A model generated the notes under the pieces. That model was not told the origin of the DNA and searched no databases. It was given only the letters and a program-made list of their open reading frames with translations. A stretch of DNA of 64,000 nucleotides from Pseudovirgaria hyperparasitica. Lineage: Eukaryota. How positions within the stretch are numbered: the first letter of the stretch is position 1; the number at the start of each line of letters is the position of its first letter. Positions 1 through 27,243 of this stretch are shown in pieces. A program made the translations under genes and the position numbers. The DNA lies in the NCBI GenBank assembly GCA_010093815.1, contig ML996583.1. One strand, written 5' to 3'.

Positions 1-209
1 GAGACACAGTCATTCATGACGCAGGCACTACACCGTGTGATTTTTGTGAGTGCAAAGTACAATAAAACACTTATTTTCAAAATCGCAAGATGCCGACCCG
101 CAAGATGCCAATTTCGCAAGATATACACAAAACAAGCCTTCCGAAAAGCGCCGGCGAGTTGAAACCGCTTGAACGCCCACATGTCCGTCAGGTGCCCCCA
201 AACAACTAC

Positions 210-13916: not shown

Positions 13917-14120
13917 TTACAGCTTCGCGCCCTCCTTGACCGATCCGATCTTCAGCTTGGGCGAGTACTTCTTCAACACGTGCTCGTTGTGATACTACCG
14001 GACGAAGAAGAGAAATAGTTAGCGTGTGATTCGTGAATACTGAAGAAGAAGAAGAAGAAGAAGAAGAAGAAGAAGAAGAAGAAGAAGAAGAAGAAGAAGA
14101 AGAAGAAGAAGAAGAAGAAG

Positions 14121-14151
<31 letters not shown>

Positions 14152-19835: not shown

Positions 19836-20247
19836 CTAGAACAGGCAGTCCAAGCAGCAACAACACGCAAGTGCAGCCATCAAGCCGGCACAGATGCCAC
19901 CTCCAGCACCGCCGCCTCCGTGGCGTCCTCTGTCATCATAGTAACCACCTGGAGGTGGTGGCCCTTGCTGGTAGTACATAGGCTGTTGCTGTGGCGGGTA
20001 TCCTCCTGGCTGCTGATATGTCTGGCCTTGCGCGCCATAAAAGTCTGCATTGGCACCCTGTGGTGGTCCTTGCTGGTAAGACCCTTGTGGCGGAGGGGAA
20101 CCGTATTGATTATTGTGGTAGGGGCCGGCGTCATAATGCGCTTGGGGAGGAGCTTGAGGATAGGATGGGGGAGGGCCATTTGGGTCCTGCAATGGCATTA
20201 GCTAGAGTGTGCGATGATGTCCCTGAGAAGCATACGTATTTGGACAT
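19836..20247 (-). CDS. Cysteine-rich transmembrane module (CYSTM) protein; exons 20236-20247 and 19836-20186
   Basis: P/Q/Y/G-rich N-terminus and the C-terminal GICAGLMAALACCCCLDCLF signature. A 12-nt first exon (MSKY) is followed by a GTATGC...GCTAAT...CAG intron at 20187-20235. Confidence 0.9.
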
Positions 20248-21484
20248 CTTGTAAGCAATGAAATTGGGAGTTTTGGCTTTCTTCAAGTATCGGGCTCGTG
20301 TGAAGTCAATATTAGATCAGGCCAGGACCTTTCGGATGCTTCTTGTATGACGTCTTTGGCGTAAAAGGTGGGACGTATATTATGTAGAGCAAGGTGTTTT
20401 ACGAATTCTAGTAGAGGAGGGGGTTAGAGATGAATAAAGTTGATAGAGCAGTGTAAGAAGAGAAATAATGGCGGCAAGATTCGGTAATTGAATACCAAAG
20501 CTCACCTGCACGATGGCTGAGCATCATGTGGCTGTGAACATGGATGGCGCGCGTCCTCACCCCGGACGCCTCCCCGCTAGACTAAGAAAAGGCTAGAGCC
20601 CTTCAACGTCAAGCCTTTTGTTATGGGTAATCGGCAATTGAATGCACGCTGATTGATGTTTTCTCTCACATCAACGCACGGTGACCGTTCTAATACTACA
20701 GATTGCGCGTCTTGTCACAGATCTGTTCATTGCCAGTATTCGAGACGCGTTACACCGTCTTCTTTAGTCTACGTCAGCCGATACACCAAGCTCTAAGGTT
20801 ACTCATGACCTTTCTTCGTCGAAGTCTTATGATCATATACTTGTAATCGTATACTGATGTACTTTCTACCCAAGTAGGTTGCAGCTAACATAGATCCTTA
20901 GTATGCAATGGGGAGCACACCTCTCCTATTTTGCCCTTCTTGTACTTAGCAATGACTTTCATTAAGATGCCTCTTGCTTTTGCGGGAAAACACCATAGCT
21001 CACTTGAGTCCTGAAAATATATGAGCCTATGGTTCACGTAAACAATGATTGAGATGTATGCTTGACACTCTATATCATCTACCATGTAGTCAACCATTCA
21101 TCGCAGTTCACAAGGGGGTAAGTGTACGAGCACCTTTTTCCAAATGTTCATAAATCGATAACAAATCAAGAGTATTAGTGGTCAAAAAAGAGATTCCCCT
21201 TTACTCGTGTCAAGGTTTTTCTTTCGTATCGCATGGAAATCAGGGGTTCATTCGCTACACTATGCAGCCACTCCGACATTGCGCACGCTGTTCACTCTCG
21301 CACATCTCGACAGCAAGTCATATGAGTGACAAATAATACATGATTAGGTACGTTCACGTTCGTGGGTTGGGAAATATCCATGTGTGACGGACAGTGCTCC
21401 ATTACGCTGGCGCTGCTAGTGGCTCATAGAACACAACGCAACGCAGAATTCCAACAAGCCAAGTAGTTCATATTGCCTCGCCCA

Positions 21485-22510
21485 GTATGCGCTCGTGCTG
21501 TGACTGGCTACCTACTCTGTGTAGCCTCGACCAGGTAAGGGGTCAAATGGATGCGGCTCCAGCCGTGCCCACGTGGTGCTCGAATGCGCTCGGCCTCTGA
21601 CTGGCTCCTATAATTCGAGATTCGAGGGAATTTCGACGATGGACACTTTATCAGTTACCCTCTCTCGAATGCGATCGGACTGTGACTGGCTGCCTACTCT
21701 GTGTAGCCTAGACCAGGCAAGGGGTAAAAGTGAACGCGGCTCTATCCGTGCCCACGTGTTGCTCGAATGCGCTCGGCCTCTGAGTGGCTCCTATAATTCG
21801 AGATTCGAGGGAATTTCAACGATGGACGCCGTATCGATTACCCTGTCTCGAATGCGATCGGACTGTGACTTGCTACCATACTGTAGGTAAATGAAGGGGC
21901 GGGAGTCCACGTGGGCACGGTAGGGCTGGAATGCGCTCGCTCGCTGAGTGGCTATTATAATTTGAGATTCCAGGGAATTTCAACGATGGACGATTTTCAG
22001 TTGCCTTGTCTCGAATGCGATCGGACGCTGAGTGGCTGCCTGTGTTCTGGGTGACACGAGTGGGGCCAGCGGGAGGAAGTGAACGTGGATGCGGGAACAT
22101 GAGTGGGACAGCGGGAAGGAAGTGAACGTGGACACGGGATACGGGTGGATGAAGCCGTGAAAGGGGTCATGTGGATACCAGCACATGGCTTTCCATGTGT
22201 CGCTGTAGGGCTGGAATGCGCTCGCTCGCTGAGTGGCTCCTATAATTCAAGATTCGAGGGAATTTCAACGATGGACGATTTTCAGTTGCCTTGTCTCGAA
22301 TGCGATCGGGCTCTGAGTGGCTGCCTGCGGTATAGGTGACACGAGTGGGGCGAGCGGGAAGGAAGTGAACGTGGACACGGGTAGACTGGGCCGTGAAAGG
22401 GTCTGGTGGAGACTGGCACATGGAAAGCCATGTGTTGCTGTAGGGCTGGAATGCGCTCGGCCTCTGACTGGCTCCTATAATTCGAGATTTGGGCAGGTGT
22501 TCAACGGTGA
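21485..22510. repeat. Composite degenerate tandem repeat array (5 conserved cores, 10 copies of a ~25-bp motif, variable spacers)
   Basis: Motif GAATGCG(C/A)TCG-N5-TGA(C/G)TGGCT at 21485 (degenerate), 21582, 21667, 21765, 21850, 21929, 22013, 22214, 22298 and 22449. The core CCTATAATTCGAGATTCGAGGGAATTTCAACGATGGAC follows the copies at 21582, 21765, 21929, 22214 and (diverged) 22449. Confidence 0.95.
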
Positions 22511-23483
22511 GGGTGGAATAGTTGCCATACGTGAGAGTGGTGGGCCAATAGGGGGACACAGGGGTCTGTGGGCGGAGCTCAGGTCCGGTCAACTGGCAGG
22601 CCGACGTGAAGTGAGGCTGCTTGACACTGTTCAAGCGGTGAAAGGTGTGATCACTGGACAGTGTGAATGATAATACTAGGTCTTATACTTACCACGACCA
22701 ACTTTGCATCTGCCTTCAGAGTATACTCAGTTGCATAATATACATCCGAGGGTTCCATAGAACAAAGAAGGACAGCACTCATGGACCGCGATACAGCATC
22801 TTATTCTACTTATGCAGATTTCTAAGACGAAACGTTCCACGCCGCAATGGTTGTATTGGGAGTCAAGGGTTAGGACTTCCAATAAACATAATCGACATAT
22901 AACGACGATACTGGCCGCGTACACTGTACTTCCCAGACTTCAGCATGGCAATACATAGACCTACCTCCAATCATACCCTTCTCGAAAGCACGACGATGGG
23001 TTTTGAGTTTTAAGACCAGGCTAACACAGTCCAGCACATGACACTTTCAGTGTCGAGCGACTGAACGGCGAAAGAAACATGGAGACTGGTCAGGGGGGAT
23101 TCGAACATTATGGGACTGAGACTCCTTCTGCCAGTGAGTTCTTACGAAGCGAATTTCTTGTGTCAAGTCAATATGGAAAGCTCCCAACAGTATAACATCA
23201 AGTACATGTCTTAGTCAAGAGCTTAAGAATCAGTGCGAGCGACTAGCGTTGTTGACGCATAGTTGTGTAAATATCACGCATGATAACCTCACACTTGTTT
23301 CTTTCCCTTATGTGTCTTATCATTTCGTCTCTCATTACGATCGAAAACGATGCATTCTGCGCACTGTAGAGACATGTATACCCGAATTTTACGTATGGCT
23401 TCGTTGCTTTCGTCATGTACAAGACTTCTATACCTTTTTCATTGGATTCCACGCTAATAGTCACAGTTATACAGCTTTCCTCT

Positions 23484-24844
23484 TTACTGTTGTACAGCTT
23501 TATCCGCTAGCTTCAGCTTCTCTATTGCTTCGCTTGAGTCCTTGCCCAGATTGACAGCGTCCTTGGCCTCGGGATTGCCTTCCACCGAGCCATCGGGCTG
23601 CGCTTGCACGTTCTTTGCCGCACCTGCACCAGGGTGCCTGCTACCCTTGTCCTTGACCTTCTTCTTCTTCTCGACGACAGGGGGCGGAGGGTAGGCCTTC
23701 TTCTCGATCTCTTGCCATTCTTTGCTGGCTTGGAATGCGGCTTGAATAGGCTCCAGGAGGGCGAGGAGAGCGTTCGTCAGTGCGGGCTTCAGAGTCTGTG
23801 GGGAGAGCTGGGAACGTCAATTGGAATTTCCAGCATACACTCAAGGGCATGTATACGTACGACATCATTCCTGTAATCCTCTTTCATCTTCACAATATCC
23901 TCGTATACCAACGTCTCCGCATCCTTTCTCTCAACCTCAAATCTAGGCTTCCCATGCTTTAGCCGACTCGCCGGCAACAGGACATATTCGACGAAACTCA
24001 ACAGCCCATTCTCTTCCACCACCTTCGGCGCCGCCTGTGCTTTTTTGACCTTCTTCCGTACCGCGTCTGCTATGTCCAGCAAGTCAATCTTACTATCCGG
24101 GTCACTCGCGCTCATCTTGCCCCCCTGCAGCCCCGGTACCATCGGGTTCATCAAATGTGCGCGCTCCCGGTATCCAATCTTCGGCAGCACCTCTTTCGCC
24201 AGCGCAAAAATCTTTCTCTGATCTACACCGCCAAACTGCGCGTCAACGCCTAGGTTCTCCTCGTCCAGGGCCTGCATCAGCGGATAAATCAGCCCACTCA
24301 GAGTTGCGTTATCGACCTGCTTTACGACCTCGGCGCCGGCCTTTTTCGCATCGTGCTCAGTAACGACAGACGACAACTTGAAGAGGTCCATTGTGTATTT
24401 TGGAGTGAGTTGGTAGGAAGATCCGAGGACGAAGACGAGTTTTTCGATGGGCACGTTTATGGCTTTGAGCAGTTCTGTGATGACGAAACGGTAGTATTCG
24501 GCGCGGAATTGCACGAGCTCGATGGGAGCTTTGAGATTGTCAAGGAAGCCATGGATATCGGCAAGAAGGATTTTGACTTTGCAGCCGGCTTGGAGGAATT
24601 GGGCTATCTTCATGATGGGCACGAAGTAGCCACAGTGAGGGCGCCCAGTTGTTGCGGTGCCTGTGGGCAACGATCAGTCGTTTGATGTGAGCTGAGGGTG
24701 TTGGTTTGAGACGTTACCCCAGTAGATCTCGAGAGCTCGGTTTTGCTTGACCATTACATCTTCTATGATTTCTTCATTCAGGACTTCTTGAAGGTTTTCC
24801 TTTATGAGGGCCAGCCTGCCCTCATAGGTTGTTGGCTCCTCCAT
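23484..24844 (-). CDS. TYS1: Tyrosyl-tRNA synthetase, cytoplasmic; 3 exons
   Basis: Spliced IYWG|TATTGRPHCGY (HIGH-like), LIYPLMQALDEE, QFGGVDQRKIF and KMSAS (KMSKS-like). The last exon encodes LSPQTLKP...EWQEIEKKAYP...* with the stop at 23484. Confidence 0.95.
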
Positions 24845-25416
24845 ACTACGTCTTTCCCTCTATTTTGCGGCGTCAATTCAATTCAAGTAAAGAGATCAAG
24901 ATTTGTACGAGAAAAATGTGAATAATACGAAGCTTTGCGTGAGCCAATTGTAAGTTACAAATCCTAATCTTGTGACTCAAAATAAATGAAGCACAAGCCC
25001 CGCAGTCTGTCGCGCCACGCGGGGTGGAACGTGTGGCTAGAGTATTGCACGTGACGGTGCAAAGTGAACCATTTTGCGATTCAGATCTACCTGTATTGAA
25101 ACTAAAGATGAGAAATATGATTGTTACTATCTGCATCGTACGTCAACCGCTCACGTACTCTGCTAAATAAGGTTTTCAGGAGCGGATACAGCGCGCGCAT
25201 GCATATCTAGCTGATACAGAATGATTCTATAGTCTTACAGGGTCGTGGCGATGAAAGAGGGCATAGGAAGAGTATTTGAACACAAATACGGGAATGGATG
25301 CGCATGACTCCATGGTCCAGTGATGATGTGAGATTCCCGGTTGCTTGCTTGTAAATGTTGGGATCGAAAAGAACGCTCAACGGGGTATGCTAGTAAACTC
25401 CAAGATCAAAAGTGAC

Positions 25417-27243
25417 CTAAACTTCTCCCCATGCGCCGACACCGGGGCCACTGCCTACGGATCCACCGATATCCCAGTAGTTTCGACTACTGCCTCCGCT
25501 GAGAGAGCGTTTACTCTTCTTGGTGCTTTGACTTGCACAGCTACTCCCTGATCTGAGCCGGATTGGCTGAACACCTGCGGGGTGATAATGGTGTCTATGA
25601 AGTACATCTCTTCGCCTGATACCCGGGTTCGCTGCACCATTACTCTCACTGTTTCGGTTGACTAGAGGATGGTGTTGCCGAATGATAGCAGCTCGATGGG
25701 CAGGATTAGATTGTGATGTGGGGGTTCGAGATAGTATCGGCGAGCCAGCTCGGGCCGAAGAGATGTTGGAGTCGGGTGAGAAGCGTTTGATAAGGAACCG
25801 AAAAACCATCTTGGCATCAAGATCTCGCTCCCAATACTCCCGCTCCTGATGAAGGCGCGTGGACGGGTGAGCGGCAGCAGTAGGTGAAATGGGAATGGCT
25901 GAAGATACCGGGCCTTCTTCTTCTTCAATCCCCCAAAGGGATGCTTCGCTATATGCCGGGGTCTGTTGGCGTTGGGCGGCGGGTAACGTGGGTTTGAATT
26001 GGTTGGTGGAAGACAGTGGAAGGGAAGCGCGTCGAGATTCAGACACTATGGGACTTTCGGTCTGAGCTTCGGTATTGCTGACGGCTGGTCCTAGTTCTAG
26101 CCCGGCATAAGGTATGCTCTCTTGAGTGCGGAGATATGTGTTGAAAGCGCCAGGGTGTTCCGAGAGCTGGTGCACTAAGATACCAAGCTCACGGGCTATT
26201 CGTTCAAGTAGACGATGCTCCCACGACTTTGGGGCGGCAGACATCGCATCGTTCTCGGAGCCCTTGTCCATCTGCCTTTGAGCCTCGCTCAGTGTGATGT
26301 TGTTAGGAGTAGGGGTCGTAGACATATCTTCCTCTGGTAGCTCTTCTCCAAATATGACAGATAGAAGTGACTCATCAATCCCCATGAGATCACGAATGAC
26401 TCTTTGAGTGAACCGTTGAAGGAAGGACATCGAGTCTTCTTCCTGATGTGTGTGCTCTGAGGGTTGCTGTGTAGACTTTGCAGTGGCTTGTTTCGCAGCA
26501 TCCGTTTCAGTGGAGCCGTTCATTTGACTCTTGTCATCTCTTGTACTCATATGGCTCGACCTCCTCATCCTCCTGGTCTCCCGTTCGATTTCTTCCAATA
26601 ACGCCCTGCTCTGTTCCAACCTCCATCGTTCTATTCTCTGCATCTTCTCATCGTCCACATGAAACTCCTGCTGTTCTTCCAATGCATCTAGCCGTCGCTG
26701 CACGCTTGACCGCCGCCGCTGATGTCTTTTCGATGGAGTCACTCTCTCAAATTGTCGGATTTGATCTTGTAGTAGCGAAGAAGTCGCCGGAAAGGACCCA
26801 AGGCCGTCATGTGTAGGTAGCACTTGTGCGCTGCCTCCCAACCTTCGGCTGGCGTCCCCTGCATCTTCGTCGTGAAAAGCATGGAGACCGTCATCCAGGC
26901 TGTCGAGATCATGGTCGTCATCCTCCCTGTCTGAGCCTTCTGTGTGTTGATCGTCGTACTCGTCTTGCTGATCGGAGCGTGCTGCGGTATCTAAGCTGCC
27001 AAAGTCGCTCAGACGTGACAGTCCGGCGGTCCGAGTGCGGTCCGTCGATGTTGTGTGTGTATGTGCGATGGTACTCTCTGCTACAGGAGTGAATAGTACC
27101 CATTCTTCTGAATCCTCTAGGGCATGTTTGCGGAGAGGCGACGCAATCGGTCCCTGGTCGGCGGCCGACTGGGACTGTTGTGGTGCAGACGCGGGGAAGG
27201 ATAAGCGGGGCTGCGGCCGTGCCATGTGCTGTCGGAATGCCAT
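25417..27243 (-). CDS. Fungal hypothetical protein, 608 aa, largely low-complexity
   Basis: Long ATG ORF with conserved-looking islands (EEWVLF, LPTHDGLGSF, RIERWRLEQSRALLEEIERETRR, WEHRLLERIARELG, RNYWDIGGS). I could not recognise a function. Confidence 0.8.
   Translation of the reverse strand: MAFRQHMARPQPRLSFPASAPQQSQSAADQGPIASPLRKHALEDSEEWVLFTPVAESTIAHTHTTSTDRTRTAGLSRLSDFGSLDTAARSDQQDEYDDQHTEGSDREDDDHDLDSLDDGLHAFHDEDAGDASRRLGGSAQVLPTHDGLGSFPATSSLLQDQIRQFERVTPSKRHQRRRSSVQRRLDALEEQQEFHVDDEKMQRIERWRLEQSRALLEEIERETRRMRRSSHMSTRDDKSQMNGSTETDAAKQATAKSTQQPSEHTHQEEDSMSFLQRFTQRVIRDLMGIDESLLSVIFGEELPEEDMSTTPTPNNITLSEAQRQMDKGSENDAMSAAPKSWEHRLLERIARELGILVHQLSEHPGAFNTYLRTQESIPYAGLELGPAVSNTEAQTESPIVSESRRASLPLSSTNQFKPTLPAAQRQQTPAYSEASLWGIEEEEGPVSSAIPISPTAAAHPSTRLHQEREYWERDLDAKMVFRFLIKRFSPDSNISSARAGSPILSRTPTSQSNPAHRAAIIRQHHPLVNRNSESNGAANPGIRRRDVLHRHHYHPAGVQPIRLRSGSSCASQSTKKSKRSLSGGSSRNYWDIGGSVGSGPGVGAWGEV

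Follow-up and report, generated by a model that had tools for sequence, protein, structure and literature searches.

Results

An array of a repeated motif between the CYSTM and TyrRS genes

The window, that is, the whole 64,000-nucleotide stretch of DNA that was analysed, carries a tandem array in the 3.2 kb gap (20247 to ~23485) between a CYSTM gene and the gene for the cytoplasmic TyrRS. The first-pass annotation had described this place as intergenic; the gap is as it stated, but the region cannot be called plainly intergenic, since a spliced transcript extends into the array. The features are, in the order of their coordinates:

19836..20247, minus strand: CYSTM gene, neighbour and candidate target, ATG at 20247
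20649..20848, plus strand: exon 1 of a spliced and seemingly non-coding transcript that runs divergently from CYSTM (X2 contig from 20649, X4 contig from 20685; 5' end undefined)
20849..20901, plus strand: intron 1, 53 nt, GT..AG with a GCTAAC branch-like site; joint present in X2 and X4, not in X1 or X3
20902..21117, plus strand: exon 2, from X2 and X4 contigs
21118..21178, plus strand: intron 2, 61 nt, GTAAGT..AG; joint present in X2 and X4 contigs
21179..22480, plus strand: exon 3, from contigs, the strand and continuity of its later pieces being presumed
21485..21509, plus strand: B1, boxes 1 and 2 only
21563..21576, no strand assigned: 14-nt segment with CACGTG, inverted copy at 21907-21920
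21582..21666, plus strand: A1 unit, with box 1 GAATGCGCTCG, five free bases (N5), box 2 (reverse CCAAT-like), box 3 AATTCGAG at 21612 and RTTRCC at +72
21667..21691, plus strand: B2, motif match
21765..21849, plus strand: A2 unit, box 3 at 21795
21850..21874, plus strand: B3, motif match
21929..22012, plus strand: A3 unit, box 3 at 21959
22013..22037, plus strand: B4, motif match
22054..22139, plus strand: 43-nt tandem duplication in spacer 4, GTGAACGTGG in each copy
22179..22199, no strand assigned: hairpin CACATGG-N4-CCATGTG, 4-nt loop inverted in the copy at 22417-22437
22214..22297, plus strand: A4 unit, box 3 at 22244
22298..22322, plus strand: B5, motif match
22440..22549, plus strand: A5, terminal full-length unit, downstream GGCCAAT at 22543
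23484..24846, minus strand: cytoplasmic TyrRS gene, convergent neighbour, start approximate (by eye), stop at ~23485

We found ten copies of the motif of about 25 bp, all on the plus strand (eight exact, two with one mismatch), where the first-pass annotation had placed them in its two variants A and B, and no match in 100 dinucleotide-shuffled controls. The start-to-start spacings along the array (97, 85, 98, 85, 79, 84, 201, 84 and 151) bear out a nearly fixed A-to-B and a variable B-to-A distance. The proposed two families of spacers are also there, with spacers 1 and 2 sharing 88% identity, spacers 4 and 5 sharing 86%, and spacer 3 intermediate at 65-80% to both groups. The internal duplication reported for spacer 4 is real, but it has a 43-nt period (22054-22096 / 22097-22139) instead of ~32 bp, and a third copy lies in spacer 5; the Tandem Repeats Finder output for the array comprised 183-bp and 43-bp duplications only. 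What did not hold within the array was the idea of constant cores set against variable spacers: same-family spacers (86-88%) are as conserved as the cores (81-92% over aligned columns), so that the window alone fits nested tandem duplications. Two spacer segments (21563-21576 / 21907-21920 and 22179-22199 / 22417-22437) differ between spacer copies by micro-inversions, which would be typical of template switching at hairpins. Contigs from the DNA data sets X1 and X3 match the array stretch with no differing letter or gap listed, in pieces each shorter than the entire array, and thus, within the limits of contig evidence, the array is no artefact of assembly.

Among the 60 window ORFs of at least 100 aa, the 22 scanned with Pfam gave no transposase, recombinase or Cas domain, in agreement with the first-pass annotation, and 7 of these 22 were without a family. 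Elsewhere in the window there is a perfect (GAA)36 tract (14042-14150) and, adjoining TyrRS, a 608-aa ORF (25417-27243, minus strand) without a Pfam family, which matches unnamed ascomycete clusters only. The TyrRS exon flanking the array is 97% identical to a protein of Pseudovirgaria hyperparasitica, with the next matches reaching at most 82%.

A spliced transcript runs into the array

One contig links the spliced part to A1, crossing B1 and reaching 21611; X2 and X4 also have array-specific contigs up to ~22478, those of X2 continuing at lower depth to 22773. X2 and X4 are two runs of one sample and are taken as RNA solely from the splice joints, by which the splicing itself is established; the evidence for the transcript consists of contigs, so their depth steps and ends are not taken as expression level or termini. 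The spliced 5' part holds ORFs of at most 68 aa, and four ORFs tested by Pfam gave no family. We read the transcript as a lncRNA divergent from CYSTM. In the X2 and X4 contigs the introns are without unspliced cover, and long leftward transcripts starting from the units are therefore not indicated, which argues weakly against the units being CYSTM-facing promoters.

Copies at two further loci of the genome

BLAST-type searches of the 35.4 Mb genome of this Dothideomycete with the array, with one module or with the C7 array returned self-matches only. Pattern searches, on the other hand, found five further units on contig C7 (173-185 bp spacing) and one on contig C18, reversed-pattern controls giving 4, 0 and 2 matches. 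Dispersed arrays, which the first-pass annotation had envisaged, thus escaped the first kind of search and appeared in the second. Three loci are a lower bound, given that these patterns miss copies with more than 1-3 changes. The second array is:

G000:C7:398380-399200 (L028:4310-5230), minus strand: five units, found by pattern search

It is flanked by a PARP/UBC-like gene on one side and a kinase-like ORF on the other, and also contains a GCGGG-TART-CCCGC hairpin and an ACACGATCGTGT palindrome; it is not RIP-mutated. The C18 copy sits between Stn1 and an O-acyltransferase gene, and a 40-bp imperfect palindrome (L029:4883-4922) lies upstream of the latter. On C7 and C18 every copy of a locus is on one strand. 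Box 1 alone has 20 other exact matches in the genome compared with 16 in the control, which is no enrichment, and these 20 were set aside as chance since the other boxes are missing; the pattern matches L017-L022, L048-L051 and L080-L082 were rejected for the same reason.

A related copy in another fungal class

Exact matches to the 17 specified bases of the motif numbered 21 in a metagenome collection that is mostly prokaryotic. One of them, on the Leotiomycete-like contig L075, is identical to the first 34 nt of A5 at 32 of 34 positions and matches 13 of the 16 free positions, a level expected about 0.0015 times among 21 matches. It is a single motif copy without box 3 on a single contig, located ~260 nt upstream of the ATG of a maltose permease (99% identity to a Hyaloscypha variabilis protein) and ~160 nt upstream of TATATAAA. 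The L075 copy resembles the window copies even in N5 and in the 5' flank; this likeness goes beyond what protein binding alone needs and therefore points to shared descent or transfer. The neighbouring genes across all loci (CYSTM; PARP/UBC and kinase-like; Stn1 and O-acyltransferase; maltose permease) have no evident common function. The other 20 of the 21 metagenome matches were dropped, the best of them (L073) agreeing at 11 of 16 free positions (0.09 expected among 21). All 23 viral-contig matches to a short pattern were at chance level and a longer pattern gave none, and two prokaryotic genome scans for the motif were without a match.

Short boxes keep their distances between loci

With offsets counted from the G of GAATGCG, box 1 occupies 0-10, exactly five free bases follow, and box 2 occupies 16-24. 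Box 3 is found at +29/30 in all 11 A, C7 and C18 units (at most two mismatches), RTTRCC at +71-73 in 9 of these 11 and RRCCAAY at +91-96 in 7 of them. The four units without RRCCAAY are A1-A4, in which a B copy occupies that place: B comprises boxes 1 and 2 alone, positioned after RTTRCC; it duplicates these two boxes within an older unit of ~180 bp. This placement, like the transcription of the array, was missed by the first-pass annotation. The last unit of each array (A5 and C7u5) is full length and diverged, and A5 is the only window unit that keeps the downstream GGCCAAT at the C7 offset.

Between loci, four or five boxes hold their offsets within 1-5 bases over linkers of near-chance identity. 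Between-locus identity is 0.92-1.0 in box 1 and 0.71-0.93 in box 2, as against 0.20-0.60 in N5 and 0.18-0.35 at -30..-11, and the linkers at +40..+90 of A5, C7u4, C7u5 and C18 reach 0.32-0.42 at the best of 7 shifts. In all four of these units RRCCAAY stands at +91..95, for which the background chance is 0.0024 per six positions, and 8 of 11 A, C7 and C18 units have an ACGTG in the 40 nt upstream, compared with 4% of background windows; the boxes were defined on the same, related copies on which they were scored, so that such chance figures are descriptive and not independent tests. The offset of the ACGTG box is variable (-11 to -29), and the box was retained through the 14-nt inversion. Reversed box 2 fits CCA(A/G/C)TVR in 16 of the 17 copies known from four lineages (window, C7, C18 and L075) and is an exact CSAAT or true CCAAT in 2 of them, while the downstream box is CCAAT in 6 of the 7 copies having it and an exact CCAATVR in 5 of 7.

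A neutral history, in which old dispersed duplications of promoter-like DNA grew locally in tandem and the transcript is promoter noise, would account for window spacers of one family being as conserved as the cores, and for the modest contrast within C7 units 1-4 (boxes 0.78-0.91, rest 0.62). It does not account for boxes and offsets that stay nearly invariant between loci despite chance-level linkers, nor for the L075 match (p ~0.0015 after allowing for 21 matches), and we regard it as very improbable. The module appears to be under selection. The view that the array is not a simple minisatellite is corroborated by the two additional genome loci, the match in another class and the restriction of between-locus conservation to the boxes; likewise, the case of a single untranscribed locus, which would have been an ordinary tandem duplication, does not apply to three loci with a spliced transcript entering the array.

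Peptide and RNA readings

Read as codons, the boxes could encode short peptides or be what is left of a repeat protein (ECARx[LIVM][TSI]G or MRSxx[DEY]WL). Several changes look silent by eye, a 121-codon open frame lies within A1-A2, and in frame +0 the synonymous share is 16/38 (p 0.068) and 6/11 (p 0.062). However, the lowest p among 48 frame tests was 0.026, and every frame is broken by stops and frameshifts, codon 4 being a stop in 2 of 17 copies. Of 470 candidates, none was a protein relative at E 10. Four of the five profile matches are ORFs whose layout of repeats and spacers is CRISPR-like, and the fifth is a repeat protein. Third codon positions are invariant. Overall, a coding function is extremely improbable. 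The database proteins P0242, P0243, P0245 and P0246 resemble translated CRISPR arrays, with a chance peptide likeness to the A core.

It is also conceivable that the boxes work in RNA, within a lncRNA bearing ten unstructured bipartite protein- or RNA-binding motifs (a sponge or scaffold) or within a source of small RNAs, which implies transcription of the C7, C18 and L075 copies in the same sense. Compatible with this, the spliced plus-strand transcript reads into the array in the sense that gives GAAUGCG, with contig cover ending near the last unit (contigs of one sample), and at C18 and L075 the motif sense likewise points away from the neighbouring promoter. Moreover, in the same sense and at 367-432 nt upstream from the C18 copy there is a canonical-looking 65-nt intron (L029:4347-4411, minus strand), suggesting another unannotated spliced RNA, with 105 of 1000 shuffles also giving such an intron. 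Against the RNA reading, near the C7 array there is no intron candidate, and no consensus fold or helix is common to the loci (z-scores -1.85 to +1.07 for 12 copies). None of 8 core pairs shows a two-sided change, a 13-pair version was not above shuffles, and covarying base pairs in the units did not exceed shuffles. A palindromic box that survives inversion would also fit DNA better. We therefore hold a function in RNA to be unlikely.

For tandem small-RNA genes with a TATA box, an option of the first-pass annotation, the outlook is poor: TATAAT occurs in 5 of 17 copies (window A type only), the fold is not conserved, a tRNA search of the array had no match, and Rfam covariance models matched neither window positions 20000-23800 at E 5 nor L028, L029 and L075 at E 1. 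Other RNA identities were tried and rejected. Antisense to rRNA or to the 5.8S-ITS2 junction gave no match below E 2.3, and neither the cores of HDV, hammerhead, hairpin and pistol ribozymes nor a 5S box A likeness, compared by eye, were consistent over copies. No host 5S gene was present in the 40 sources scanned.

A possible mobile-element relic

The dispersal to three contigs, the tandem unit-spacer layout, the flanks common to A3-A5, C18 and L075, and the purine-rich tracts before TGAACGTGG in C7 and in some window spacers could all be left by a small non-autonomous mobile element (an LTR/TRIM-like array or a DNA-transposon end), with the boxes serving it as promoter or transposase sites and the match in L075 being a related element or a horizontal transfer. 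There are TAGGG starts as well, which we take to resemble hAT ends. Nevertheless, none of the 3 loci has TG..CA ends flanked by a target duplication of 4-8 bp. Inverted partners are lacking, every copy of a locus being on one strand, and the motif is absent from nine hAT loci and from contig C90. No RIP-decayed copy with the 5-nt spacing between boxes 2 and 3 was found, and the arrays are without a RIP signature whereas the rDNA and hAT copies are RIP-mutated. The units contain no GGTTC box B, and the motif is absent from the Helenus/Ajax supplement (PMC10886601). A relic of this kind is quite unlikely, and the mobile-element option of the first-pass annotation loses ground accordingly, yet something did copy the unit between contigs. 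The hAT loci mentioned (L083-L091) are nine matches to the dimerisation domain, eight of them with stops; L083, on the short contig C90, is open. The geminivirus nonamer, Helitron ends and Reb1/RTS1-type barriers were compared by eye and were not consistent over copies.

Comparison with described elements

The Neurospora 'Taq box' is a ribosomal-protein promoter element of filamentous fungi. CACGTG is enriched in such promoters (PMC2853525). Box 3 and its flank resemble the organism's own eS12 promoter and both contain CACGTG, whereas the box order differs, and boxes 1 and 2 were found neither in five of five L7Ae-family promoters nor in the rDNA spacer sequence covered, which is RIP-mutated and partly N. 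In the eS12 promoter, the stretch at about -125..-100 can be aligned with the A1 core, and 2 of 446 background pieces score as high; eS12 is one of five promoters tested, the other four being at background, and the likeness is post hoc (p about 0.02). Thirty published Fusarium promoter motifs are enriched on one C7 strand (0 of 300 shuffles as high) and not in C19 (32 and 298 of 300 shuffles) or C18. In 20 kb of C40 the rDNA intergenic spacer, from a copy that is RIP-mutated and partly N, had no match to the core or to box 3. As side observations, AATCTCGAA occurs twice ~100 nt before the eS12 ATG (L129), GCCAAGTC is present in the eS12 (L129) and eL30 (L133) promoters, and a 16/17 match to C7u3, not significant, precedes the Nhp2-like ATG (L132). 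The C40 sequence (L093-L094, G000:C40:1-20000) comprises a RIP-mutated rDNA unit with an LSU group I intron and two 350-bp spacer repeats; decayed, AT-rich sequence comes after it.

CRISPR arrays combine short repeats, unique spacers and cas genes. The present array shares short repeats, variable spacers and a diverged terminal unit, but its window spacers are homologous (65-88%) and 54-176 nt long, the 22 ORFs scanned have no Cas domain, and the organism is a eukaryote. With tandem-array TRIMs, Cassandra and Helenus (PMC10886601) it has in common the unit-spacer tandem layout, units of 130-180 bp and a purine tract before TG; as to a primer-binding site, the bases after CCAA vary from copy to copy. 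It differs in that the copies lack target duplications and box B, and occupy three loci only. For tRNA features of the Helenus type there was no tRNA call, and a box A-like stretch was seen by eye in A3 and A4 only.

HomolE-HomolD forms the core promoter of ribosomal protein and lncRNA genes in fission yeast (PMC10253590, PMC4138321). TGTGACTG, the inverted HomolD box, is exact in B1, B2 and L075, and in L075 a GGTAGGG/GGGTTGGG-like stretch lies ~17 nt upstream, in the functional order. Unlike those promoters, the module shows the invariant HomolD core AGTCAC in only 4 of its 17 copies, lacks a full HomolE, has box 1 in between and does not lie upstream of ribosomal genes.

The composite site of CBC:HapX is CSAAT-N12-RWT plus TKAN (PMC7144946). 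Like that site, the module joins a CCAAT-like box to a second motif at a fixed 3' distance and uses CCACT and CCAGT variants, and its box 2 itself starts with TKAN. Unlike it, RWT is found at N12 in 0 of 17 copies at box 2 and in 0 of 7 at the downstream box (the N12 position of box 2 holds GCA, with ATT 2 nt later), the partner box is an invariant 11-mer, the modules form tandem arrays and the neighbours are not iron genes. With the HapX spacing missing from all 17 copies, a factor other than HapX would have to be the partner. Taken together, by the features tested, the array may work like a CCAAT-anchored composite element and appears to be neither HapX, HomolD, TRIM, hAT nor CRISPR.

Discussion

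Short boxes kept at fixed distances over free linkers look like the imprint of cooperative protein binding on DNA. We put forward, tentatively, as the leading possibility that the array consists of a composite protein-binding module, for the CCAAT complex and a partner, which was copied, amplified in tandem and transcribed through. Among the three options of the first-pass annotation, an array of protein-binding sites would be the best supported as judged from sequence. In Aspergillus the CCAAT complex binds CCACT and CCAGT as lower-affinity variants of CCAATVR and covers 13 nt 3' of its box (PMC7144946). Measured from box 2, box 1 lies at the edge of that footprint, and binding of the partner at this edge would explain the fixed spacing of boxes 1 and 2. 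Several observations weigh against this reading: a true CCAAT is rare at box 2, the genes next to the loci are unrelated, the published promoter motifs gave a mixed outcome, and L075 is more alike than binding alone requires.

The proposed module of ~100-130 bp would read, on the plus strand, ACGTG, box 1, N5, box 2, box 3, RTTRCC and a forward CCAAT (+91-96). The CCAAT-binding complex (HapB/C/E) is predicted to bind box 2 and the downstream CCAAT, with the partner factor on box 1 at the footprint's edge. The module would have been copied to three loci and amplified at two of them by unequal exchange, leaving the terminal units A5 and C7u5 unhomogenised, and in the window array boxes 1 and 2 would have been reinserted inside the unit as B. 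Towards the bidirectional CYSTM/lncRNA promoter, ~0.9 kb away, the array could potentially behave as a multi-copy enhancer, silencer or boundary; multiplication would raise occupancy, and the lncRNA crossing the array might modulate it.

A wider hypothesis, which we consider distinctly unlikely, is that of a portable multi-box cassette, present in at least two filamentous ascomycete classes, that moves between promoters, forms arrays and enters spliced lncRNAs, the one repeated site acting as a tunable decoy or scaffold for its factor in both DNA and RNA. For the module itself, the evidence at hand, which is that of sequence comparison and contigs, suggests that it is most plausibly a composite cis-regulatory module of undescribed form. 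In openly visible papers (subscription papers lying outside this view) we found no description of the element, and literature matches to the 11-mers, where examined, were unrelated primers. To our knowledge, long composite regulatory elements of fixed spacing are barely catalogued in filamentous fungi beyond a few Aspergillus examples. The natural variants, 17 copies in four lineages, mark the important bases and distances, so that the binding factors can be fished out. If the module does move between loci or species and acts via a lncRNA, it would give regulation a way to be rewired in genomes whose ordinary repeats are erased by RIP.
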